From a virus: 43,959 nt of DNA. Below the pieces are notes generated by a model. That model did no database searches. It was not told where the DNA came from and saw only the letters and a program-made list of their open reading frames with translations. The translations under genes were made by a program, and so were the position numbers. The stretch lies in the UHGV virus genome UHGV-0342795. One strand, written 5' to 3'. Of this stretch, positions 1,793-19,692 are shown piece by piece (positions within the stretch are counted from its first letter, which is position 1; every line of letters starts with the position of its first letter).

Positions 1793-3616
1793 TTAGTCTG
1801 CCTCCGCCCAGTTTTTCGCCTCATGGCAATCTACAATCAACGGAACCCTCAACGTAACGCATTCTTCAAGCACCCGCTTGAGTTCCTTGAGGGCTTCTTT
1901 GCCCATTTTCGTTGGAGGTACGGACACGTCAATTTCGTCGTGTACGGTAATGTGAGGGGGAAGCACTTCAAATAGCCCTGCCTCGTACGCATCCACCATA
2001 CCTTTCTTCATGATATCCGCCGCCGTCCCCTGAATCAACCTGTTGTACAACGAGTGCAATTTGCGGGAGGGATGCACTCTTGCCCTCCTGCCAAGCAACG
2101 TGAATATGTACCCTGCTTGGGTAGCCTTTTCCACAACGCGCTTGCGTGTCTGCTTCAGGAAGGGAACCTCCTTGTGGTACGCCTCCATGAACATGACCGC
2201 CTCTTCCTTTGACCAATAGAACTTGCGGGAGGCCGCTTCAGCGCCCATGCCGTATGACGCGCCGAAGTTGAGTCGCTTGGCTGTACGCCTGTCGAACCCA
2301 GTGAGATCCTGAATGTGCTGATGGTAGTCCGTCTTCGGGTTGTCCCTGTACGTCTGCCTCAGCTCTTCGCTTCCAGGTCCAATCGCGTAATGCGCGCCTA
2401 TTCGGTACTCAACCTGACTTTGGTCGAGTTTAGCCCACGTGTACCCTTCCTCCGGAATGAATAGCTTGCGCAGGATTTGACCTTCTAGCAATTCGTCACC
2501 ACCTGAGAACAGGTCGTCTTCCTGTGCTGAAACCTGTTGCAGGTTGGGTTTCGCGCTTGAAAAGCGTCCCGACACAGCTCCGTATCCGTCGCTCTTGAGC
2601 GGATGGAACTGGCAATGCAGTCTGTCCCCTACGACGAAGTCGTAGTACGGAATGAGGAACATGTTGGTTAGCGTGTTGTAATGCCGCCACAACAGGATAG
2701 TCTTCAGCTTAGGATCAGTCCCGGCCATGACCATACGCGTGATGGCATCCTTGTCCAGATTGGGGTTGCCCTCCTTGCCTTTCATCTTCATGAATTCAGT
2801 TGGAGGATTGCGTGGGTACTCAATGCCCTTTCTGTCCAGCACCTTGGCAAGCTGAGTGGACGATCCAATATCGAACTCCCCGCCAGCCCATTCATAAAGG
2901 TCTGTTTGAAGTTCGTACATTTTGTCCACCACAGCCAAGGAAGTCTTCTTTAGCCGAGGCATGTCCAGCCTTACCCCTTGTTTGCGCATTTGAATCAGCA
3001 ACGGTATGAGGCGGCACTCTATGCTATACACCTCATCAAGACCCTGCCTAGAGATGACCTCCCGTTGCTTCTCGATGATTCGCATGGGCAGCATGCCGTC
3101 CAGCTCGGCATACCGGGCTACAGCTTGCGCTGGCATCCTCCAAATGTGTTCACGAGCGTCCTTGAACTTCCAGCCTTGTTTGGCGCAATACATATCCAAC
3201 AGGTCTGAAGCCTTCTCTTCGCACCCATAGATTTTAGCCAAGGCGGACAAACTGTAGGACTGACGGTATTCGTCAATCAACGGCTCAGCATATTGGATAT
3301 CTTCAAACGGCCCTTTGACTTCAATACCCATGTTGTTAACGAGCCAGTCAAGATCGTATACGATGTTGGCTCCAACCTTGCGCGTGGGTTTGGCAAGAAT
3401 GTCCTTGATTATGCGCAGGTTGCGCTCCTTGCGTTCAGGAGTGGTATCAGGATGCGCAATGTCCAAATAGACTGCCCTTTCCTTTGTCGCCAGCGAAACG
3501 CCAACAACGTACCCGTCCTTACGAAAGACTCCCGGCCCTTTTGATCTAAGGTGAGGGTCTTTCGTTTCAGTATCTACGCCTATTTCAGTGGCGGAACTCA
3601 GCCAATCAAAACTCAT
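1793..3616 (-). CDS. DNA polymerase I-like (family A) with 3'-5' exonuclease domain
   Basis: An Exo I-like motif (GVDTET) lies near the N-terminus. Pol A motif B (RRTAKRLNFGASYGMG) and motif C (VHDEIDV) are present. The start is taken at the ATG 3616-3614, which has AAGGAG upstream. The listed ORF extends 16 codons further upstream. Confidence 0.9.
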   Translation of the reverse strand: MSFDWLSSATEIGVDTETKDPHLRSKGPGVFRKDGYVVGVSLATKERAVYLDIAHPDTTPERKERNLRIIKDILAKPTRKVGANIVYDLDWLVNNMGIEVKGPFEDIQYAEPLIDEYRQSYSLSALAKIYGCEEKASDLLDMYCAKQGWKFKDAREHIWRMPAQAVARYAELDGMLPMRIIEKQREVISRQGLDEVYSIECRLIPLLIQMRKQGVRLDMPRLKKTSLAVVDKMYELQTDLYEWAGGEFDIGSSTQLAKVLDRKGIEYPRNPPTEFMKMKGKEGNPNLDKDAITRMVMAGTDPKLKTILLWRHYNTLTNMFLIPYYDFVVGDRLHCQFHPLKSDGYGAVSGRFSSAKPNLQQVSAQEDDLFSGGDELLEGQILRKLFIPEEGYTWAKLDQSQVEYRIGAHYAIGPGSEELRQTYRDNPKTDYHQHIQDLTGFDRRTAKRLNFGASYGMGAEAASRKFYWSKEEAVMFMEAYHKEVPFLKQTRKRVVEKATQAGYIFTLLGRRARVHPSRKLHSLYNRLIQGTAADIMKKGMVDAYEAGLFEVLPPHITVHDEIDVSVPPTKMGKEALKELKRVLEECVTLRVPLIVDCHEAKNWAEAD

Positions 3617-4100
3617 TATTCCGCTCCTTTGCCCTTTTAGTTCTTTCCCTCTTTGAGGCCTCATGTGCCAGTGCCTTGCACTCGTCAGAGCAATACTTGA
3701 ACCTTGCGTCGCCCTTAAAAGGCTGTCCGCACTGCTTGCAATAGATCACGTGGGGCTCAGACCGTTGCGCCGCATTTTTGCACGCATGACAGCAGTAGCG
3801 TTGCCAAGGTACAGCAGGAACAAACGTGTTGTAGCAGTCGGGGTTGGCGCACGACCTGCGCTCCTGTTCCCTTTCCTTTTGCTCCTTTTTGATCTTATCG
3901 GCAAGGCTGGAATTGCATATGGCACATACAACGGTCTTCGTAGCGTTACCCACAAGCACATTGCGCCCGCAGATCGTGCATGCAAGAACCTTCATAGCGT
4001 CTCCTGGATTTTTACCATGCGCAGGAACGTCGCTTTGGGAGGCGAAAATTCCTTTCGTGGCCTTTGCCCTATGCCGAAAGTGCGTCCTGCAAAACGGCAT
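3606..4100 (-). CDS. Cys-rich zinc-ribbon protein
   Basis: Six CxxC/Cx3-4C pairs occur along the 164 aa (CTICG, CAICN, CANPDC, CCHAC, CKQCG, CSDEC). Its 3' end overlaps the polymerase start by 11 nt. Confidence 0.5.
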   Translation of the reverse strand: MPFCRTHFRHRAKATKGIFASQSDVPAHGKNPGDAMKVLACTICGRNVLVGNATKTVVCAICNSSLADKIKKEQKEREQERRSCANPDCYNTFVPAVPWQRYCCHACKNAAQRSEPHVIYCKQCGQPFKGDARFKYCSDECKALAHEASKRERTKRAKERNNEF

Positions 4101-4139: not shown

Positions 4140-5411
4140 TTACTTAGAGCTCGCTTCCATCAGACTCAGGACTTCAATGAGAGGCCAATGGCCCTTGTAG
4201 TCCGTCTTATAGGGCTGGTCATAAATGACCTTGCGCACCCCAAGGTGGTTGAGAAGCTTCAGGCATGCGTCGCATGGCCCATGCGTCACGTACACTACAG
4301 CGTTGCTCCAGTCTGAGAATCCGTTCTGGAGAGCCTTTATGCAAGCCCTCATTTCAGCGTGAACGGAGTAGCAACCGTCGCTGTAGAACACTTCCTTTTT
4401 GTCCCTTGCGCATTCAGTGCAAGCCTCCCCGTCCCGGTCTCCGTACCCCGTTGCGATGACTTCTCCACGTGAGATAATCACAGCCCCACACTTCTTTTTT
4501 AAGCAACGGGACTGCTTGGAGGCCTCCCATGCCACGTTCATATTCAGATTATGATTGCGCCAATCGAATAACCCGATAAAACGTTGCACAAAAGCTCCAA
4601 TTGTCAAACGCTGAATAGCGGCTTGGGGGCACGACACCAACGGCTGTGCAACATCAAGGTTCTCGTTGGTGAATCTCTTTTCGCAATCCCTGAACTTGTC
4701 AAACGCCCATTCATAGAAGTGCAAGTTGAGGGCTTGATGGATGTGATAGCCTAATCCAAGGTTAGGATACGTTCTTTTAAGCATTGCGAGCGCAGTGTAA
4801 TGCACGACCCTGAAGAAAGGCAAGTCATACGGCAGACCGTACCAAAGGTCATTGGATCGCATGATGACTTGCATGTTGAGCGCATCACCTTGAATGTACA
4901 GGTTGATGATCAATGTGCAAGGATTATCGTTGCTGATGTAGGCATGTTCCTTGGAGTACAGCGTCATCACAGCCTTTTTGGAATCAGGGTTGTTACGCAA
5001 GCAATTGATTGCGTGCTCGAACTGAGTAAAACCATGCTTATTCTCGTCATGGAACAGAAGGAACCCATAGTTGCTGTTGATGGTTTTTCCGTCGTCGGAG
5101 CACTTGCTCCAGAACTTGCTCATCTTTACAGCGTCTTCCAATTGACGAGATCCGCTCGCGTAAAAGTCCAGTTCCTTCTCAAGGTACTCCTGAGAGGGAT
5201 ACCGTCCAAGGCAATACGTAGAAGCCTCCGGGTCGAGCACCAACGTTACGTTGCGCATTTCGTAGAGCCCTTGACCCTTGCGGTTAACAGTGTGCCGACC
5301 GTTCTTATGGATGTAATAGAAGATATCCAAGAAAGGCACGCACTGTCCTTTCTTTACGTTAAAGGTAGTGAACACAGGGTATTCGTTAGTTCCAAGTTGA
5401 GGGGTATCCAT
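4140..5411 (-). CDS. Fusion protein with an N-terminal thymidylate-synthase-fold domain (pyrimidine C5-modifying enzyme, Asp at the TS Asn177 position) and a C-terminal dCMP/cytidine-deaminase domain
   Basis: The TS core aligns without gaps to E. coli ThyA 144-181. NPCTLIINLYIQGDALNMQVIMRSNDLWYGLPYDLPFF aligns with [38 protein letters not shown], conserving the catalytic Cys, R166, S167 and D169, with D in place of N177. The C-terminal 120 aa carry the CDA zinc motifs HAEMRA and PCDAC (VVYVTHGPCDACLKLL). AAAGGA lies upstream of the ATG. Confidence 0.8.
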   Translation of the reverse strand: MDTPQLGTNEYPVFTTFNVKKGQCVPFLDIFYYIHKNGRHTVNRKGQGLYEMRNVTLVLDPEASTYCLGRYPSQEYLEKELDFYASGSRQLEDAVKMSKFWSKCSDDGKTINSNYGFLLFHDENKHGFTQFEHAINCLRNNPDSKKAVMTLYSKEHAYISNDNPCTLIINLYIQGDALNMQVIMRSNDLWYGLPYDLPFFRVVHYTALAMLKRTYPNLGLGYHIHQALNLHFYEWAFDKFRDCEKRFTNENLDVAQPLVSCPQAAIQRLTIGAFVQRFIGLFDWRNHNLNMNVAWEASKQSRCLKKKCGAVIISRGEVIATGYGDRDGEACTECARDKKEVFYSDGCYSVHAEMRACIKALQNGFSDWSNAVVYVTHGPCDACLKLLNHLGVRKVIYDQPYKTDYKGHWPLIEVLSLMEASSK

Positions 5412-6801
5412 ATGTGTTTTCCTTTAATTTTAAGGTTAATCTGTTCTTTGCCCTTGTTACTCCTACGTAATACGCCCTAAGCTCTGAGTTCATAAACGAA
5501 ACCCACGTTCGGTACGTCTTGTAGGAGAAGTCTAGAGCCAATACAACGTGGGAGCTTTCGGCTCCCTTCGCCGCGTGAATTGTACTGAGTGTTATATTGG
5601 GTTCCTTTTCAAAGTTCTCCTTTGATCTAAGAAGCCTACGAATGAACCCTGCCTCTTCCTGATTGGCGTAAACAACGAACCATGGAGAGCTAGGGCAATC
5701 CAGTGTAAGAAAGAAGTCCTTGTACAGTTCAAGCAGTCGTTTGGCCTTTTCGTACCCTTTTTCTCTCTTTCTTACTTGCTCGTACAGGGTTATGGCGCGA
5801 AGAGACTTAGGATTAACAGCGGGCTTTATCGCATTCTTTTCTACCTTGGAGTAGTTAACTCCTATAAGCCGCAACCACTTTTCAGCCCTGTTGAGCTCTG
5901 CATGGGTTCTTGCAAGAACCAATGTAGGAGTGTTAGGCTCAAAAGACACGTTAGCCCAATTGGTAGCCGAATCTAACACGCCCTCCTCGTCACGAGGATT
6001 GAATATCTTTTTGGAGCTTCCCGCTATCCTAGAAGATATCTCCATTGCAAAATGATGAATGGCCTTTGGAAGCCTGTGACTCTGGTCAAGAACTTTGTAG
6101 GACGGAACGTCAATGAACCGTTGAACGTCGGCTCCTGCCCATTCGTATACCCCTTGGTCATCGTCACCTGCAATATAGACCTTAGAAGCGTTGCTGAACA
6201 GCTTTAGCATCACCTCCCATTGAAGCATAGTCAAGTCCTGCGCCTCGTCTATGAAGACCACGTCCACGGGCAATGGATCTTGAGTTAAGTAACTCTGATA
6301 CAGTATGTCCGTGAAGTCCATCAATCCATTCTGCTTCTTGTAGCGCAGGTAGTTCTTTTCTACAAAACGCAGCAGTTGTGTATTTGAGTCTTTGATGAAT
6401 ACTTCAAACACATCAGGATTGGTAAGACGAAGTTGGCATGCCACAATGCAACGTGCAGTTTCTGAATGTGGAACCCCTGTTGCATACAGGTCTGACATAA
6501 CCAGAGGCAAACCCAAAGCGTGGGCAAGTTCCCTATAATGCTCGCTTCCCATTACCTGATCCCTTGTGAGACCAAGCTGGTGATAACAAATGGAGTGCAT
6601 GGTTTTAAAGTAAGGAACGTCCTCCTTCTTTAAGTTGAACCTTTTGAGTGCCCGATCTACGCCCTCGTACGCACCCTTCCTTGTGAAGGATACAAAGGCT
6701 ATCCTTTCGGGAGGTGTGCGCTTGAGCTCTTCTTCTAGCGTATCGAGCAGGAAGGTTGTCTTGCCTGTTCCTGGAGGCCCAATGATCTTGTACAAGTTCA
6801 T
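5386..6801 (-). CDS. UvrD/Rep-like superfamily-1 DNA helicase
   Basis: Walker A is GPPGTGKTT. Motif II is VFIDEAQDL and motif III is GDDDQGVYEWAGADV. The C-terminus has TIHAAKGAESSHVVL (motif VI-like). The start ATG overlaps the upstream gene's stop as TAATG. Confidence 0.8.
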   Translation of the reverse strand: MNLYKIIGPPGTGKTTFLLDTLEEELKRTPPERIAFVSFTRKGAYEGVDRALKRFNLKKEDVPYFKTMHSICYHQLGLTRDQVMGSEHYRELAHALGLPLVMSDLYATGVPHSETARCIVACQLRLTNPDVFEVFIKDSNTQLLRFVEKNYLRYKKQNGLMDFTDILYQSYLTQDPLPVDVVFIDEAQDLTMLQWEVMLKLFSNASKVYIAGDDDQGVYEWAGADVQRFIDVPSYKVLDQSHRLPKAIHHFAMEISSRIAGSSKKIFNPRDEEGVLDSATNWANVSFEPNTPTLVLARTHAELNRAEKWLRLIGVNYSKVEKNAIKPAVNPKSLRAITLYEQVRKREKGYEKAKRLLELYKDFFLTLDCPSSPWFVVYANQEEAGFIRRLLRSKENFEKEPNITLSTIHAAKGAESSHVVLALDFSYKTYRTWVSFMNSELRAYYVGVTRAKNRLTLKLKENTYGYPSTWN

Positions 6802-9560: not shown

Positions 9561-10337
9561 CTAGAACGTAGCTCCGCCGGGGGTAACATCAATGGCTTCA
9601 GATGCGTCACCCGCTTCCAGCGCAGTGAAGTCTAGACGCTGTTCGGGAGTGGGCAACGCCTTGCGTTCCTCAGTGACAAGCTGAAGCGTTTCCTTGCCGA
9701 CGAACCCTGCGAACTCCACATGCAGACCAGCCCACGAGCCCTGATCGTTGCTCATGGGAACCGTGGTCAGTGTCCACTTCATGAAGTAGGGAAGAGCCTT
9801 ACGTCCAGTTCCCGGGATGAACGTGCTGGTCAGCAAGCGGTTCCACCTACGGGCTTCCTTCAGTTGCGTGGAGGACAAGCAGAGAAGGCAGATACCGTCT
9901 TCGATGTAGTCCGGGAACACGATGTAGTATGTGTACGTATCAACGAACTCGTTTCCTGTTCTGGAGATGAGCTTGTTCTTTTCGTTGCGGTGAAGCTCCC
10001 CAGTGGCCTCCATCTGAGCGACAATCTCAGGGGCATGCGCCTGAACGAAACCGCCGCGATTGGGCTTCCATTCGATAAAGTAACGGTCGAACCGTCCCAC
10101 CACAACGTCAACCGGGGGCTCAATGACCCTGTTGTTGATGTTGTTCAGGAACATGCCTTCTTCCGCGCCGGGGATATGGTTAGGATCAGTGCGCTTGCAT
10201 TGCGGGGACAGGCTCTGCAGAATGCGAATGAACGGGAACGCAACAACGTCAGCGGAAAGGCTTTCAAAGCCTCCCAGTCCGTCGTCGAAGAGATGGGAAT
10301 AGTCCTCAGCCTGATTCTGCATGGTTTCCTTGGTCAT
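9561..10337 (-). CDS. Hypothetical protein (258 aa)
   Basis: The ATG is preceded by AGGAGA. It is acidic and aromatic-rich, and no motif was recognised. It follows two nucleases, so it could be a recombination partner such as an SSAP, but that is speculative. Confidence 0.5.
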   Translation of the reverse strand: MTKETMQNQAEDYSHLFDDGLGGFESLSADVVAFPFIRILQSLSPQCKRTDPNHIPGAEEGMFLNNINNRVIEPPVDVVVGRFDRYFIEWKPNRGGFVQAHAPEIVAQMEATGELHRNEKNKLISRTGNEFVDTYTYYIVFPDYIEDGICLLCLSSTQLKEARRWNRLLTSTFIPGTGRKALPYFMKWTLTTVPMSNDQGSWAGLHVEFAGFVGKETLQLVTEERKALPTPEQRLDFTALEAGDASEAIDVTPGGATF

Positions 10338-10353: not shown

Positions 10354-10860
10354 TTAGCCTATGATGAACTTTTCATAGTCGGTTTTGTCGAAAGCACCGC
10401 CAGCCTGAACAGCAAGGTAGTGAGGCCCGAGTTGTGTAAGGTGGTCGACCACGTCCTGGAAGTATTGGCTATGCCCTTCTTCCTCGACAATGATCTTTTT
10501 CAGAAGCTGAGCCGACACGTGGTCAATCTCGCTCAGTTTCTGAATGTACTCGTTGTACTTGAATACCGTGTCCCGCTCGAGATCAGCGTCGGTTGCGAAA
10601 ACAACCATAGGCTCCTGATTGGTGTCCACGTTCTGAGCCGGGGCAACGATAGGAATGCCGCCGAGTTCACGAATACGCTCGCTGAGCATCTCAGCATGGC
10701 GCATTTCCGAAATGGCGATTTTCTTTACGGCCTTGGCAAACGTAGGGAACATGAGGTTGTCAAGGGCATAGTGGTGTTGCATGTACTGACCGATGGCGAC
10801 AAGCTCCATCGATCTGGCCAGATTCAGAATGTCTATAGATTCTTGAGGGTTCAAAGACAT
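10354..10860 (-). CDS. bfr: Bacterioferritin (Bfr-like ferritin-fold di-iron protein)
   Basis: It aligns to bacterioferritin. The segments ELVAIGQYMQHHY, AISEMRHAE and EEEGHSQYF supply the ferroxidase ligands (E18, E51, H54, ... E127, H130 equivalents) and the heme-ligand Met at position 52. AAGGAG lies upstream of the ATG. Length is 168 aa. Confidence 0.8.
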   Translation of the reverse strand: MSLNPQESIDILNLARSMELVAIGQYMQHHYALDNLMFPTFAKAVKKIAISEMRHAEMLSERIRELGGIPIVAPAQNVDTNQEPMVVFATDADLERDTVFKYNEYIQKLSEIDHVSAQLLKKIIVEEEGHSQYFQDVVDHLTQLGPHYLAVQAGGAFDKTDYEKFIIG

Positions 10861-11624: not shown

Positions 11625-12101
11625 TTAGTTGTTTAAGAATCCGAAAACGATCTCGGTAACGTGCATTCCTTCTTCCGTTACCCAGACGCCACCCTGCTCA
11701 TCCCTCACTGCCAAGGGCATGACAATAAGGTTCTTACGGTCAATCCTGACTACGGCATGGTACTTGCCCTCCTTTGTGATGCGCTTGCTTGCCGAAGCCG
11801 AAGGCGGGAATGCCTTGATGAGTTGCTTGCGACTGCCGTCATGGTACAGCTTGAGACCTTCCGAGGAAGGAACAGCCCAAACATCAATCTCGGCATACAG
11901 CTTGTAAAGAGGATGCTCAGCGCACTGCTCCAGCACGAAGTCATGAAGTGAACCCTGCATGACGAAGACAGACTTCAAATAGTCCTCTTCCCACGCAACG
12001 GCGTAGTTGCCACAAAGGTAGGTTTCTTCAACCTGTGCTCCATTGGCAACGGCAGGAGTAGCGAAGAGCAGACCAGTCAACATGAGCGCGGGGATGTTCA
12101 T
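11625..12101 (-). CDS. Secreted/periplasmic protein with cleavable signal peptide
   Basis: The N-terminus MNIPALMLTGLLFATPAVANG fits a signal peptide with n-region, h-region and an AxA cleavage site. The ATG overlaps the SNF2 stop as ATGA, and TGGAG lies upstream. Confidence 0.55.
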   Translation of the reverse strand: MNIPALMLTGLLFATPAVANGAQVEETYLCGNYAVAWEEDYLKSVFVMQGSLHDFVLEQCAEHPLYKLYAEIDVWAVPSSEGLKLYHDGSRKQLIKAFPPSASASKRITKEGKYHAVVRIDRKNLIVMPLAVRDEQGGVWVTEEGMHVTEIVFGFLNN

Positions 12102-14416: not shown

Positions 14417-15193
14417 TCACTTACGGAACTGCGAAAACCGGATAGTTACGTCCTTATACATGCGTCCCGTGAGCGGATTGGTTTTGTCCTTGAGCATAAC
14501 ACAAGACGGGAACTTGTTGCGTAACAGCACCGCCGCCTTAACCCGAAGGTCATCGTCACGGTAAAGGTTACAACCTGAGTTCGTACCCGCTCCAAGTTGA
14601 TCGTCAGCAGTGAACAGGTTCAGCGTAGCCGTCCTGTAGCCAGCCTTCATCAGTTGGAGTTGCATGTGAAAGTCCTCAAGGATGTCCCCTTCCCATTCGT
14701 AACGGAAGCCTTCTCCCGACAGCGTGGGCAGGTGCAGGACTGGCGTCCACATGATGCGCTTGTTAATGCCCCACGTCTTTGTTTCAGTGTGGGCGAACAT
14801 GCGATGACGCAAGCCTATCATGGGGAACTCCGAACTTACGTTTTCGAACACAGGTCTAAGCGCGTTGTCTATGCTGACGGGATGGAGCTTTTCGAGCTTG
14901 TTGCCGTTGCGATAGGCAAACGCCAGATCGTCATCGAAGATGCCGAGCTTTTCAACGTCCCGAACGTAAGCCTCTTCCATGATGATGTCCCGAATGCGAG
15001 ACACCTTGTTAGCAGTATGCAACATGAGCCTTACGTTGAACGCTTTAGCTACAGGCTTGTACGCTTCAGCTTCATCCTTGTGCACCCAAAGGGATACAGG
15101 GTAATGAGAATGCTGGAGCCACGTGAGCGTCAGTTGCCTGTTCAGCAGAACGTCTGCCCTTCCCCGGCTCAGTACGGCGAGTTCATACTTCAT
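14417..15193 (-). CDS. GT-A fold (GT2-like) glycosyltransferase, soluble
   Basis: An Asp-rich DxD-like segment (LGIFDDDLAF) lies at about residue 90. WEGDILEDFHMQLQLMKAGYRTATL matches the GT2 'ED.D..LRL..AGY+' catalytic-loop motif. AGGAGA lies upstream of the ATG, and no TM segments are seen. Confidence 0.5.
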   Translation of the reverse strand: MKYELAVLSRGRADVLLNRQLTLTWLQHSHYPVSLWVHKDEAEAYKPVAKAFNVRLMLHTANKVSRIRDIIMEEAYVRDVEKLGIFDDDLAFAYRNGNKLEKLHPVSIDNALRPVFENVSSEFPMIGLRHRMFAHTETKTWGINKRIMWTPVLHLPTLSGEGFRYEWEGDILEDFHMQLQLMKAGYRTATLNLFTADDQLGAGTNSGCNLYRDDDLRVKAAVLLRNKFPSCVMLKDKTNPLTGRMYKDVTIRFSQFRK

Positions 15194-15201
15194 ATCGTCT
15201 C

Positions 15202-16455
15202 CTAGAACATTTGACTTTCAATGAAACTGCGACGCATGGTGCATTCATAAGCCGTCTTGTCATGGCGGAAGCCTGTTACCCAGTTCGCCTTGGCATGATA
15301 AATGCGCTGGTTCCTTGCGCTGATATCCTGACCGTCAATGGTAAGGACTTGCCCGTAAAACTCAGTCTTGAGTGCGGGCTTGCCGTCCCGTACTTCACTG
15401 AGAGCCATACGCGTTTGCAATGGAATGCCGCTCACGGTAGCCAGCCAATGGACTCCAAGCTGTTCATTGTTGTCTCCCAACAAATAAACGCCGAGTGTGA
15501 TGCCAGCAATGAGCCCCGCCTTATCCCATTCACCGCCGTTGGTGTAGCCTATGACGAATGCGTCAATGTCTGTCTGACTAGCCATGGACATACTCCTCTT
15601 CAGTTTGATGGTGGAGTTCTTGTCACGGAAGTTGCCAATAGCCGGAATGTAGAACGAGCTCAGGTTCTTGAGAACTACACCTTCCTCACCGTTGGCAACC
15701 AGTGATTCAAAGTAGGTCTTCTTGCCCCGCTCCCATTGCTTGGGAAGGCGTACGGAACGATCGAGCATGGGCATGCCTTGCATGAGCTCAAGCCTTTCCC
15801 TGAAGGGAATCTCCGTGATGATCTTCTCACGTTCAATGGGAAGGAAGTCGAACGCCACCAGCTCCATGGGAGCCGTAGTGCGTTGCGCAAGGTGGCTGTC
15901 ATGCACGTTAAGCTGAAGCATAGACGTTACAGCGTTCAAGCCCTTCCCGGTGAAGTTGCCGTCATTGAGCTCCACGAACCCGTCAGTGACCAGTTCGCAG
16001 TCCAATATGAACTCTTCCTTCCAATGACCAGCGAACTCCTTGAGCGTGCTCAGCTTGCCGTTGAGCGGAACAAGAAGCTTTTCAGTGTACTCCACCGGAA
16101 GCAGGGTAACAGTCGAGCGATTACGCCCAAAGGCTGAAAAGCCCTCATCGGGATGGTAGACCAGAACCATGCGGCAACCATCGAACTTCTCTTCGGCTAC
16201 CCAACCATTGCCGTCGGAAATGACGGCCTCCTGCTCGTCCTGCTTGAGCTGGTCATAACGGTAAGCCAACTGAACGTCATGCAACTGATCACGCATGACG
16301 CGACCGAAGGTGATCTCCCGCTGTTCACGATAGTGTTCAGCGATGACCGCCTCCAAGTCCCTGTTCAGGATCTTGCCGTTCTTACCCGTCCCTTCATACG
16401 GAACACGCAATCCGAGCTCTTCGATTCTGTTGCACAACTGCGTAAACGTAGCCAT
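15202..16455 (-). CDS. ATP-dependent DNA ligase
   Basis: Nucleotidyltransferase motif I (KxDG) is AEEKFDGCRMVLVY. Motif IV/V-like EGVVLK is present. The start is taken at the ATG 16455-16453, which has GGAGG upstream. The ORF track's start is a TTG four codons earlier. The ATG overlaps the upstream stop as TAATG. Confidence 0.85.
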   Translation of the reverse strand: MATFTQLCNRIEELGLRVPYEGTGKNGKILNRDLEAVIAEHYREQREITFGRVMRDQLHDVQLAYRYDQLKQDEQEAVISDGNGWVAEEKFDGCRMVLVYHPDEGFSAFGRNRSTVTLLPVEYTEKLLVPLNGKLSTLKEFAGHWKEEFILDCELVTDGFVELNDGNFTGKGLNAVTSMLQLNVHDSHLAQRTTAPMELVAFDFLPIEREKIITEIPFRERLELMQGMPMLDRSVRLPKQWERGKKTYFESLVANGEEGVVLKNLSSFYIPAIGNFRDKNSTIKLKRSMSMASQTDIDAFVIGYTNGGEWDKAGLIAGITLGVYLLGDNNEQLGVHWLATVSGIPLQTRMALSEVRDGKPALKTEFYGQVLTIDGQDISARNQRIYHAKANWVTGFRHDKTAYECTMRRSFIESQMF

Positions 16456-17396
16456 TAGAACCTCCAAGCACTCGGAATGTAAGGTTGCTCCAAGGGAGAG
16501 AGGATGCGACTGAAGTTGTTCTTAATGCTCTTGCCGTCATCACGCACCCGACAATACTTGTCGTATTCGCAGAACAGGTTCTGCATGTCATTGCCACGGA
16601 GTGGGAACTCCTTGCCGTCTACAGTGAGGACAGGGAAGGACGGAATGCCGTTAATCGCAAGCCGCTTGAGCACGCTAGGCAGTTCAATCAGCTTAAGATG
16701 AGGCCAAACCCGTCTCATCCCGCGCTGGCACCCAATCCCCGGAACGATGAACTTCTCGTAGTCAAACATTAAATGGTTGTAAGAGAAGTCCAAAGCGAAC
16801 TGGTAAGCCAAGAAGTCCCCAAACCCCTCATGACGGCGGAAGATTGCGTAGGTGTAGCTCATGTCTGAAGAGTTGTAAGCCCTCTCCAGATCACCGCTGT
16901 CTTCCATGTGCTTCAGCGTCCTGAGGAACAGCTCCGTCCTTGTGGTGCAACCGAACGTCCACGGCGGAGTCATCATGTAAGCGTTGTTGTATACCGTAAC
17001 CCCGCAAGCGCGACGTGCTTCAACGAAGCTCTCAATGGCAGGAAGCGCGTTGTACGCATCGTACTTGTAATCCGGAAGGGATTCCCATGTCTCAATGCTG
17101 TTGAACAACCTGAACAGGAACATGCCCATGCGATGAGCGCGAGGGAGCTCAAAGCAATTCGCCTTGTCGTCAATGATGTTCTTCGCCATGTACTGCGAAA
17201 CACGATCAAGGATTCGGTAGGCGTTGGTGAACTTCCACTTGTCAAGGATAGGATCCTCGGACACCAGCGCAGTCCCATTGACACGTGCGAGGAACCGCTC
17301 TTGCCTACGAATAGCGAACCCGTAAAAGTCCACCAGTCGCTTACTGGTAGGCAGGTGCGGAGCCACCGGAAGGTCGTTAGCCTTGAACCAATCCAT
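16455..17396 (-). CDS. Hypothetical protein (313 aa), no recognised motif
   Basis: The start is taken at the ATG 17396 (AAAGGA upstream); the track start is a TTG. Conserved-looking segments are KWKFTNAYRILDR and HEGFGDFLAYQFALDF. It is embedded between the ligase and the HD hydrolase. Confidence 0.55.
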   Translation of the reverse strand: MDWFKANDLPVAPHLPTSKRLVDFYGFAIRRQERFLARVNGTALVSEDPILDKWKFTNAYRILDRVSQYMAKNIIDDKANCFELPRAHRMGMFLFRLFNSIETWESLPDYKYDAYNALPAIESFVEARRACGVTVYNNAYMMTPPWTFGCTTRTELFLRTLKHMEDSGDLERAYNSSDMSYTYAIFRRHEGFGDFLAYQFALDFSYNHLMFDYEKFIVPGIGCQRGMRRVWPHLKLIELPSVLKRLAINGIPSFPVLTVDGKEFPLRGNDMQNLFCEYDKYCRVRDDGKSIKNNFSRILSPLEQPYIPSAWRF

Positions 17397-17398
17397 GC

Positions 17399-18055
17399 TC
17401 AATCCTTTATGTTAAGCTCTTCGAACGCCTCGAAGAGGTTGGTGTACACCATGTCATCGGACATGGGATTCAACAAGGAGTAGACCCGCTTGTCATACTG
17501 GGACGCATCCCACTCGGGCTCACCAAAGAAGAACGAGCACTCCATGAAGCCAAGCGCGTCATCCGCCTTCGTAACAGCCAGATCAGGTGTCGCGTTGTAC
17601 TTGTCAAAGATCGCACGCTGAATCCTGTCTTCGCACTGAAGATACTCATAAGCGCACTTGAACGCCTCCCGGTTGCCTTCCTCAGCGACGTCCATGTATA
17701 CCTTGACAGCTCGTCTCACCGCCGTAACAATGTGGTTCTTCATGGGACGGATGATGTCCCCTGTGTACGCCTCCACCGCGTCATGCAACAGAACGGCTCT
17801 CAGGATGTCCGGAGCGGTGATACCTATGACATGCTTGGCATACGCCAGCGTAGCCAATGAATGCTGCCCCACACTATAATGGTAGGGGGTCGCGCCGTTG
17901 AAACGGCAGATGTGCGACAAGCTGTTGGCAATGTGCGCAAGGCTCAGGTTCGGTCCAAAGATCGCGTTCTCCGGATCATGGGTAGGCAAAGCCCAAAGGT
18001 TGAGTCTTACGCGTTCAGTTGTAAAGACACCGGGATAACAAGGTTGCTGGCTCAT
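17399..18055 (-). CDS. HD-domain phosphohydrolase (YfbR-like 5'-deoxynucleotidase family)
   Basis: The H...HD...D motif is H(SLATLAYAK)H ... LLHDAVEAYTGD. AGGAGA lies upstream of the ATG. Confidence 0.75.
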   Translation of the reverse strand: MSQQPCYPGVFTTERVRLNLWALPTHDPENAIFGPNLSLAHIANSLSHICRFNGATPYHYSVGQHSLATLAYAKHVIGITAPDILRAVLLHDAVEAYTGDIIRPMKNHIVTAVRRAVKVYMDVAEEGNREAFKCAYEYLQCEDRIQRAIFDKYNATPDLAVTKADDALGFMECSFFFGEPEWDASQYDKRVYSLLNPMSDDMVYTNLFEAFEELNIKD

Positions 18056-18868: not shown

Positions 18869-19087
18869 GTTCAATGGTTTTGCACGCTTACTTGTTTTTT
18901 TCCGCCTTGAAAAAAATCCGCCAGCTCCGCGTACAGTCAATTATTCCAGTGGGTTGCGGTTCAGAAACAGAAGGTTACATGACACTTCCGGAGCATTTCC
19001 CCTCTGTAATAAATTTTCAGAATCTTCACGTGAAAAAAGGATTGGTATCACATGCGCATGAAATCCATGCGTTATGGATACCGAGTA

Positions 19088-19107
19088 CAAAATTCCGATT
19101 TTGATTT
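19088..19107. repeat. 20-bp element caaaattccgattttgattt (copy 2)
   Basis: It is a direct repeat of 18849-18868, 239 bp away. Confidence 0.6.
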
Positions 19108-19128
19108 TCCCCCCGGAAAACGTAAAAG

Positions 19129-19142
19129 CTATTATATAATAG
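19129..19142. promoter_or_regulatory. Perfect 14-bp palindrome CTATTATATAATAG (contains TATAAT on both strands)
   Basis: It is self-complementary over all 14 nt. It lies in the non-coding control region. Confidence 0.4.
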
Positions 19143-19692
19143 TTGGGGATCTTCAATGATTTCGAGGGGTTTACTGTTTTCCGCTGATTTTACACTGACT
19201 CGGAAAAAAGGTGGGAAAGTACATTTTTTCGAGAAGCCCTGACGGACTGAACTCTCATCTCTTCAATCCAGATCTCGAAAAACAGTGGGGTTTTTGGTCA
19301 ACTCGCCCCGGTTCAGATAGATTAAGCTCTGGAAAATCCTAAAGCAAATCCGGTTCTTTCGGGATGAATCTTAAAAATCTGTCGGGGTGTTTAATCCATT
19401 GAACCCAAACCGCGAAGGGCGGAGCCATTGACCCTCCGCCGCCCACGTTGCGCCTTGCCGCCTCCCTACCATTAAAAAGGGACGCTCCGGAACCGTCCTG
19501 TCCCACGTCACGGGAGCGTGGGGCAGTCGAATGCACCCGCCCCCGCCGGGGGTCAAACGGCGTTCCGGCGTCGCCAGGTCAAGCTGTCCGTTGGAGCCAG
19601 CCGGAACCGCTTCCGCAAGTCCTACGATTGAAACGAAAAGTTGAAGCCTGAAAACTTTTTTGGAAAAAGTCCCAAAAATCCGAAAAAAGTGC

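Follow-up and report, generated by a model that had tools for sequence, protein, structure and literature searches.

What reaction would a phage enzyme carry out in which a thymidylate synthase (TS)-fold domain with the active-site marks of a cytosine-modifying enzyme is joined covalently to a deaminase? The question is raised by a gene of the UHGV virus genome UHGV-0342795, of which a stretch of 43,959 nucleotides (referred to below as the window) was analyzed. The encoded protein comprises, in this order, a TS-fold domain resembling dCMP hydroxymethylases, a long linker helix, and a dCMP deaminase domain. We put the chance at somewhat better than even (roughly 0.55) that one bifunctional enzyme acts sequentially here, taking dCMP to 5-hydroxymethyl-dCMP (5hm-dCMP) and then to 5-hydroxymethyl-dUMP (5hm-dUMP). 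The protein is a fused form of the TS-homologue/deaminase pair and probably provides a dUMP-free route to 5hm-dUMP for glycosylating thymine hypermodification. What is new is the covalent fusion, the signature of a hydroxymethylase rather than a methylase, and a genome context of the 5-hydroxymethyluracil (5hmU) type.

Domain architecture of the fused protein

At its start, the open reading frame (ORF) shares 26 nt with the end of the UvrD-like helicase gene upstream of it (coordinates of all features are collected in Table 1). Pfam recognizes Thymidylat_synt at residues 27–246 (71.7 bits; cut-off 24.3) and dCMP_cyt_deam_1 at residues 287–397 (59.1 bits; cut-off 25); both matches are beyond chance, and PHROGs and NCBIfam concur with these domain calls. 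An AlphaFold (AF2) model built from 19 homologues, with a predicted local distance difference test score (pLDDT) of 86.6 and a predicted template modeling score (pTM) of 0.83, contains the TS fold, a helix spanning residues 262–298, and the deaminase, and matches TS-fold structures with E values of about 1e-15.

Active-site residues of the TS-fold domain

For classification of the TS-fold domain, it was aligned with the experimentally characterized E. coli ThyA, T4 gp42, SPO1 gp29, and M6 gp58. In this five-way alignment the active-site stretch aligns gap-free from the catalytic Cys through the specificity residue, where the window reads NPCTLIINLYIQGDALNMQVIMRSNDLWYGLPYD; an initial annotation, made from the sequence alone, had claimed a gap-free alignment to ThyA over the N-terminal approximately 290 residues, which holds for this Cys-to-Asp core and not for the whole 290. 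The equivalences to E. coli are C165 = C146, T166 = H147, R185 = R166, N187 = C168, D188 = D169, and D196 = N177 (D179 in T4), so that its readings of PCH as PCT and of C168 as Asn stand. At the N177 position, Asn is found in ThyA, SPO1 gp29, and M6 gp58, and Asp in T4 gp42 and in the window. The same placement was obtained independently of the multiple alignment by phmmer against the PDB, which set GLPYD on GFRND of T4 dCMP hydroxymethylase (1b49), and the Asp first noticed at this position was thereby borne out. Membership in the PF00303 fold is evident from the conservation of C165, R185, Y115, E80, H231, and Y233 (E. coli Cys146, Arg166, Tyr94, Glu58, and the His207/Tyr209 region).

Asn or Asp at E. 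coli position 177 selects dUMP or dCMP, respectively (eLife 2021, PMC8670742), and Asn/Asp swaps there switch the dUMP/dCMP preference of both TS and T4 dCMP hydroxymethylase (summarized in PMC8670742 and PMC13326640). At L143, methyl products are associated with a bulky hydrophobic residue and hydroxymethyl products with Asp or Glu, and D169N is a mark of flavin-dependent 5-hydroxy-dCMP synthases (NAR 2026, PMC13326640). The window protein has D196, D162, and D188 at these three positions, all as in a T4-type enzyme, and is therefore classed by sequence as a T4-type dCMP hydroxymethylase; a cytosine-specific activity is supported as a prediction. D162 and C165 are both invariant in 19 fusion homologues. 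The initial annotation had proposed a profile and structure comparison with attention to the N177 and H147 positions; this gives Asp196 and Thr166, with the T4 enzyme as the closest solved relative. In the PDB, 1b49 is the top sequence match (7e-12), with every thymidylate synthase ranking lower, and it is also the best-covered Foldseek match of the AF2 model (TMt 0.75; root mean square deviation 3.1 Å). One further feature concerns the phosphate-binding Arg pair contributed by the partner subunit: the Lys-Lys pair that replaces it is invariant in the fusion clade and rare among stand-alone Asp-type relatives, which mostly have RK, RQ, or RR, and may be linked to hand-off of the product to the deaminase.

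Other members of the fold fit less well. Canonical ThyA (dUMP to dTMP) has Asn, His, and a bulky hydrophobic residue where the window has Asp196, Thr166, and Asp162, and the NCBIfam thymidylate synthase equivalogs score the fusion protein at 29–52 bits against cut-offs of 108–427. A coupled dCMP to dUMP to dTMP pathway, one of two routes first put forward, is disfavored since the N177, H147, and L143 positions all lie outside the thymidylate synthase state. Assignment as a 5-hydroxy-dCMP synthase of the RB69 gp48/DLP3 gp80 type was rejected on Asp188, Asp being found in every family member that covers the D169 position, and the dUMP hydroxymethylases (SPO1 gp29/M6 gp58) differ in having Cys-Asn..Asn where the window has Cys-Thr..Asp. 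A dCMP methylase of the Xp12/PaMx74 type was rejected on Cys-Thr, on Asp162, and on the lack of a dihydrofolate reductase (DHFR) gene in the window, by a weak rule taken from a single reference sequence.

That last family underlies one rival explanation, in which the protein would make thymidylate in two steps, dCMP to 5-methyl-dCMP to dTMP, as proposed for Xp12-like 5-methylcytosine (5mC) phages. The in-cis deaminases of Xp12 and PaMx74 have indeed been proposed to make dT from 5-methyl-dC nucleotides (bioRxiv 10.1101/2024.12.05.627091). In the 5mC phage PaMx74, however, ThyA combines Asp at N177 with Cys-Pro and with Asn at the L143 position, and its gene adjoins a DHFR gene, whereas the window has Thr after the Cys and the Asp at L143 that is found in the hydroxymethylases T4 gp42, SPO1 gp29, and M6 gp58. 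We regard two-step thymidylate synthesis as very improbable.

The deaminase domain

[quoted passage not shown] Upstream of HAE lie an additional invariant C331-x-x-C334 and C347, an arrangement unlike that of the S. mutans and T4 enzymes, which probably forms a second, structural zinc site.

Deaminases of the mSCD ('methylation-selective') class, which prefer C5-modified to unmodified cytosine nucleotides, are recognized by being encoded beside an Asp177-type TS homologue, and the deaminase here is fused to one. In cytosine-modified metavirome contigs, 70% of deaminases have a TS homologue, mostly of Asp type, no more than 3 kb away; when co-expressed with T4 gp42 and gp1, 7 of 90 such deaminases yield 5-hydroxymethyl-dU in E. 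coli DNA (bioRxiv 10.1101/2024.12.05.627091). mSCD-B5 acts on 5-methyl-dCTP faster than on 5-hydroxymethyl-dCTP, and on both far faster than on dCTP, and the proposed role is to supply dTTP from 5-methyl-dCTP in Xp12-like phages (bioRxiv 10.1101/2024.12.05.627091). The logic of modifying first and deaminating second is thus established for unfused pairs. The initial annotation had called the fusion with a deaminase unusual, which is apt for the covalent fusion and not for the pairing as such, phages commonly carrying the two genes together. Its other suggested route, from dCMP through a 5-substituted dCMP to a 5-substituted dUMP, gains from the demonstration that unfused in-cis deaminases act on C5-modified cytosine nucleotides (bioRxiv 10.1101/2024.12.05.627091), and it is also favored by context, as the module described below is elsewhere paired with dUMP hydroxymethylases.

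Conservation and distribution of the fusion

More than 120 full-length metagenomic homologues carry both Pfam domains, down to 43–45% identity; relatives are plentiful in IMG/VR set 3300045988 and turn up in many SRA runs. Across the 19 fusion homologues, which extend down to 43% identity, D196, C165, H351, E353, C380, and C383 are invariant, and the same six residues are kept in all complete full-length fusions among 50%-cluster representatives. An exhaustive HMMER search of 1.84 billion such representatives returned about 20 full-length fusion clusters, belonging to uncultured Pam3-like myophages, and then stand-alone TS-like proteins. The key positions are covered by the TS-like domains of 140 of the best 150 cluster representatives, and all but one of these (139) have Asp at the N177 position, nearly all with Cys-Thr, which places the TS domain deep within the cytosine-type clade. 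The cytosine-type TS fold originally proposed is in this way supported by its closest kin as well as by the Asp residues at N177 and L143, by Cys-Thr, and by the top-ranking match to the T4 enzyme.

No fused gene was found in cultured phages by tblastn against 50,697 phage records, where coverage of the query exceeds 80% in Xp15 alone, with the genes separate; megablast of window positions 1–25000 against the same records gave no match. In Xp15 (L171, NC_007024, 29563–33499) a Nol-like carbamoyltransferase, a hydrolase, a small ORF that bears the annotation of a putative DNA polymerase subunit, a Cys-Thr..Asp TS, and a dCMP deaminase are contiguous. Gene sets of this type were linked to 5-carbamoyloxymethylcytosine in the MetaGPA study, and Xp15 DNA may carry this base. 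The sole match in a GTDB scan of 185,579 species genomes was one short contig in a Thermoplasmata metagenome-assembled genome, which gives no pointer to the host. With the SNF2 helicase as anchor for loci (±10 kb) holding the fusion and PF18723 together, only unrelated phages at 25–38% identity were recovered. A literature search found no published description of the fusion; its automatic name at JGI is 'deoxycytidylate deaminase/thymidylate synthase'.

Two IMG/VR loci (L106 and L107) show the unfused sister state, which bears on the origin of the fusion: a TS-like gene with the KK pair, a deaminase gene, and PolA, together with a PF18723 gene that has a TAGT-like gene on either side. Within the fusion clade, a relative of 46% identity on a Logan contig (L010, SRR31341459, 976–2657) has a radical-SAM/SPASM gene adjoining its TAGT-like gene, which hints at a different final modification on the same precursor. 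Another relative (L006) lies on an ENA scaffold of 432,583 bp and has a HicA/HicB toxin-antitoxin pair inserted at 18962–19651 in its baseplate/tail module, with differing tail genes. On the 432-kb scaffold carrying relative P0081, the genes around the match are solely phage genes; the great length of the L006 scaffold probably reflects chimeric assembly and not a prophage.

Genome context and neighborhood census

Three other genes of the window bear on the fate of the product. An HD phosphohydrolase is a weak homologue of M6 gp59 (BLASTP E 1e-6), which in M6 adjoins the dUMP hydroxymethylase, and probably acts as a deoxynucleoside monophosphate (dNMP) phosphatase, clearing a canonical pyrimidine nucleotide. 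The second protein matches PF18723 ('HMUDK_hel'). The Pfam description, '5-hmdU DNA kinase helical domain', misleads here: in direct comparison the protein is a homologue of M6 gp55 (M6 locus L001:27261–28232) and gives no significant match to the P-loop kinase gp54, and a role as 5-hydroxymethyl-dU DNA kinase was rejected. The family nonetheless keeps invariant motifs like those of an enzyme (FxNxxRxxD, GxGxxxG, and C-E-[FY]-x-K-Y). An hhalign comparison of the PF18723 alignment with M6 gp51, an amino acid:DNA transferase (AADT), gave a probability of 2.4%, with only a shared E-x-x-LC motif aligned. M6 gp55 is a member of the thymidine-hypermodification cluster, and gene neighborhood ties the PF18723 family to 5hmU-based DNA hypermodification. 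The third is a TAGT-like GT-A glycosyltransferase (GT), a probable decorator of the hydroxymethyl base in DNA.

The window contains no second TS homologue and no second deaminase. A Walker-A scan found no kinase ORF other than the helicase, no gp1-like dNMP kinase was detected, and no MazG-type dCTPase occurs among the scanned window ORFs. The P-loop 5-hydroxymethyl-dU DNA kinase (PF18748) and the AADT (PF18724) are absent from the window by Pfam, phmmer, and the Walker-A scan. A thymidine-hypermodification cluster of the M6/ViI type was not assigned, the M6 gp55-like PF18723 protein being the only member present.

For the census, two sets of loci were assembled: a PF18723-anchored set of 75 IMG/VR loci, taken from the best 80 of 448 PF18723 relatives with the window's own clade excluded, and a TS-anchored set of 64 loci, all of Asp type. 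A TS homologue with the Cys-Asn..Asn signature of SPO1 and M6 is found in 58 of the 75 PF18723 loci, usually within 1–2 kb, with two more truncated copies; an Asp-type TS or a deaminase occurs in none of the 75. The HD protein is present in 37 and the TAGT-like GT in 34, the latter flanked by the PF18723 and TS-like genes wherever coordinates were inspected, and none of these 34 loci carries a 5-hydroxymethyl-dU DNA kinase or an AADT. In the TS-anchored set, PF18723 accompanies 8 of the 16 loci with an adjacent deaminase and 0 of the 48 without (Fisher p = 3e-6). The eight positives fall into three groups (L106/L107, L123/L125/L126, and L166/L167/L169), and their TS domains, from at least three lineages, are 25–40% identical to that of the window. 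The window's PF18723 protein is closer to those from Asn-type loci than to those from the Asp-type positives; given this kinship and the divergent TS domains, the pairing seemingly arose more than once. The Asp-type hydroxymethylase plus deaminase therefore appears to replace the Asn-type dUMP hydroxymethylase in a 5hmU module, and on the simplest reading both arrangements would deliver 5hm-dUMP.

The census also brought out a recurrent compact module in 34 of the 75 PF18723 loci (L177–L251), made up of PF18723, a TAGT-like GT-A, a Cys-Asn..Asn dUMP hydroxymethylase, and often an M6 gp59-like HD protein; in L178, for example, PF18723 lies at 9971, the GT at 10837, and the TS at 11836. This suggests a widespread phage pathway for glycosylated 5hmU (base J-like), and points to that base as common in uncultured phages.

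A 5hmU-type context also fits the order used by SPO1-type phages, in which the deaminase would first make dUMP and the Asp-bearing TS-fold domain would then hydroxymethylate it to the same net product. Unusual features of the fusion clade (K145/K146, and retention of R44) could alter substrate handling in favor of such an order. Yet all 58 complete stand-alone hydroxymethylases linked to PF18723 have Asn, not Asp, at the specificity position, Asp is invariant across the fusion clade, and the effect of swapping these two residues in TS and in the T4 enzyme speaks for dCMP as substrate; a deaminase, moreover, is strictly required only for a cytosine-using hydroxymethylase. We consider this order unlikely.

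Rather more weight, although still well short of an even chance, is given to an arrangement modeled on T4, a phage that encodes both gp42 and Cd. The two domains would work in parallel on dCMP, 5hm-dCMP serving glycosylated 5-hydroxymethylcytosine (hmC, 5hmC) DNA and dUMP going to dTMP via host ThyA, and the fusion would merely hard-wire two members of a complex synthesizing deoxynucleoside triphosphates. The window GT does match hmC-glycosyltransferase families; Xp15 has its Asp-type TS and adjacent deaminase beside a carbamoyltransferase, which represents 5hmC-derived chemistry (eLife 2021), and co-localization of deaminase and TS is enriched in modified-cytosine contigs (bioRxiv 10.1101/2024.12.05.627091). 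Systems that place 5hmC in DNA, on the other hand, co-express a gp1-like kinase (bioRxiv 10.1101/2024.12.05.627091, PMC13326640), and neither such a kinase nor a dCTPase was detected in the window. Where an Asp-type TS has no deaminase beside it, PF18723 is never found (0/48); it otherwise accompanies dUMP hydroxymethylases (58/75), and the HD phosphatase, too, resembles a partner of dUMP hydroxymethylases.

Table 1. Positions of the fusion gene, its domains and motifs, and the neighboring genes discussed (E. coli numbering is that of ThyA; aa, residues of the encoded protein)
Feature	Position	Strand	Remarks
Fused TS-fold/dCMP deaminase ORF	4140..5411	minus	Single uninterrupted ORF, 423 aa
TS-fold domain, aa 20-250	4662..5354	minus	PF00303 E 7e-20; phrog_160 E 2.8e-30; AF2 pLDDT 86.6
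K145-K146	4974..4979	minus	At E. coli R126/R127; phosphate-binding Arg pair of partner subunit replaced
D162-N-P-C165-T166	4914..4928	minus	Catalytic Cys; Thr at E. coli H147 as in T4 gp42; Asp at E. coli L143
R185-S-N-D188	4848..4859	minus	E. coli R166-S-C168-D169; Asp188 kept
G192-L-P-Y-D196	4824..4838	minus	Asp196 at pyrimidine-specificity position (E. coli N177/T4 D179)
Linker, aa 257-298	4518..4643	minus	AF2 secondary structure: one long helix, 262-298; pTM 0.83
dCMP deaminase domain, aa 287-410	4182..4553	minus	PF00383 E 4e-16
C331-x-x-C334	4410-4421	minus	Invariant
C347	4371-4373	minus	Invariant
H351-A-E353	4353-4361	minus	HAE motif
P379-C380-D-A-C383	4263-4277	minus	PCxxC motif
Family-A DNA polymerase	1793-3664	minus	Replication run
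UvrD-like helicase	5386-6801	minus	Replication run
TAGT-like GT-A glycosyltransferase	14417..15193	minus	PF20691 E 2.9e-14; phrog_842 E 7.8e-23
PF18723 ('HMUDK_hel') protein	16455..17402	minus	Pfam E 8.7e-50; M6 gp55 E 2e-13
HD phosphohydrolase	17399..18055	minus	Pfam YfbR-like/HD; phrog_318 'deoxyribonucleoside 5' monophosphate phosphatase' E 8e-27

The fusion gene lies in a minus-strand run of replication genes (PolA, UvrD-like helicase, archaeo-eukaryotic (AEP) primase, SNF2 helicase, and DNA ligase). Lysis and terminase genes, together with tail genes of the Pam3-like myovirus type, occupy the plus-strand half. Close relatives lie on contigs of 42–44 kb, from which the window would probably be a complete phage genome. 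The fusion gene is separated from the DNA polymerase gene by a Cys-rich ORF of 164 residues with several CxxC pairs (3606–4100, minus strand), which matches PHROGs only weakly, at an HNH endonuclease (4.5e-6), and is called as 129 or 164 residues in relatives. A ferritin-like protein (10354–10860, minus strand; Pfam Ferritin, 1.5e-23) is encoded within the replication module and is kept in the relatives L005 and L009.

Proposed reaction sequence

From the observed architecture, active-site residues, conservation of the fusion, and neighborhood statistics, we infer both activities, their order, channeling between the domains, and the final base in DNA, by computational means throughout. In the first step, as read from the sequence marks, Cys165 would attack C6 of dCMP, and the methylene group of methylenetetrahydrofolate would be passed to C5; water, and not hydride, would then resolve the exocyclic methylene to give 5hm-dCMP and tetrahydrofolate. 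In the second step, suggested by the fusion and the genome context, the zinc deaminase (His351/Glu353, Cys380/Cys383) would turn 5hm-dCMP into 5hm-dUMP at the monophosphate level. The net conversion would be dCMP to 5hm-dUMP in an order opposite to that of SPO1 and M6; free dUMP would never be made, and host ThyA would therefore be unable to divert flux to dTMP. Downstream, host kinases would phosphorylate 5hm-dUMP to 5hm-dUTP, which the family-A polymerase of the phage would use instead of T; the HD phosphatase would meanwhile deplete the canonical nucleotide that competes with it. The PF18723 protein and the TAGT-like GT would then modify 5hmU within the DNA, a sugar being the probable addition.

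Several points weigh against this sequential route to 5hmU. Xp15 and Serbin have a Cys-Thr..Asp TS and an adjacent deaminase and no PF18723, and the pairing of TS and deaminase alone is therefore no proof of hmU; the carbamoyltransferase of Xp15 is typical of 5hmC-derived modification. The TAGT and phrog_842 relatives of the window GT are best known from hmC glycosylation. The role of the PF18723 protein here is putative, and M6 gp55 was dispensable in vitro. The distant fusion-clade genomes L105 and L011 have neither PF18723 nor the GT; these two genes look like accessory decorators. Phages with 5hmU are reported to carry a dNMP kinase of their own, and none was detected in the window. The in-cis deaminase mSCD-B5 acts on triphosphates and not on monophosphates, and serves phages in which C is fully replaced (bioRxiv 10.1101/2024.12.05.627091). 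The loci counted in the census are partly redundant and not all phylogenetically independent. Finally, by analogy with Xp12, modified C could also be present here. In such a mixed outcome, some 5hm-dCMP would escape deamination, and 5hmC for C and 5hmU for T would both be glycosylated by the TAGT-like enzyme with PF18723. This is doubtful, although less so than the deaminase-first order considered above; if it were true, a small 43-kb phage would have both pyrimidines hypermodified from one precursor enzyme.

To our knowledge, 5hm-dUMP in all characterized 5hmU phages comes from an Asn-type dUMP hydroxymethylase. If the sequential route holds, thymine hypermodification would have a second entry, through deamination of 5hm-dCMP, that evolved independently; it would be a new way to the modified thymine which such phages decorate to evade host nucleases, and the reversed order would sidestep competition from host thymidylate synthase. 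The rule that Asp177 means modified cytosine in DNA would then fail where a deaminase is fused or adjacent, which would affect metavirome annotation. As both domains lie on a single polypeptide, the hypothesis is testable with one clone, and such an enzyme could serve as a one-pot catalyst for 5hm-dUMP.

Comparison with known systems

Among solved proteins, T4 gp42 (1b49/1b5e) is closest to the N-terminal domain in sequence and is its best-covered match in structure, sharing its fold and marks (Cys-Thr, Asp at N177 and L143, and the NSNYG and MRSND motifs), and T4 Cd (1vq2) is homologous to the C-terminal domain. In T4, however, gp42 and Cd are separate proteins that feed two bases, hmC and, via Td, T, whereas the window encodes one polypeptide; a dCTPase and the gp1 kinase are further requirements in T4, and the window differs also in its Lys-Lys in place of the Arg-Arg clamp and in its 5hmU-type context.

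The Xp12/PaMx74-like systems (mSCD-B5) have the same two families side by side and, as proposed for the window, place C5 modification before deamination. Their TS homologues are methylases (Cys-Pro..Asp in PaMx74) encoded by separate genes, and the pathway runs through triphosphates to dTTP; the window has a hydroxymethylase signature, fused domains, and 5hm-dUMP as its predicted product.

SPO1 gp29 and M6 gp58, each with a separate dCMP deaminase (gp65 in M6), achieve the net conversion predicted for the window, dCMP to 5hm-dUMP, and the HD hydrolase and the PF18723 protein are partner genes in common with the window. The SPO1 and M6 enzymes have Cys-Asn..Asn and act on dUMP, whereas in the window the order would be reversed and free dUMP bypassed.

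A more distant parallel is the bifunctional DHFR-TS of protozoa (PDB matches 3i3r and 8dae), the classic case for substrate channeling, in which a TS fold is likewise fused to the enzyme of an adjacent metabolic step. The partner domain, the domain order, and the chemistry all differ, and the likeness is one of analogy only.

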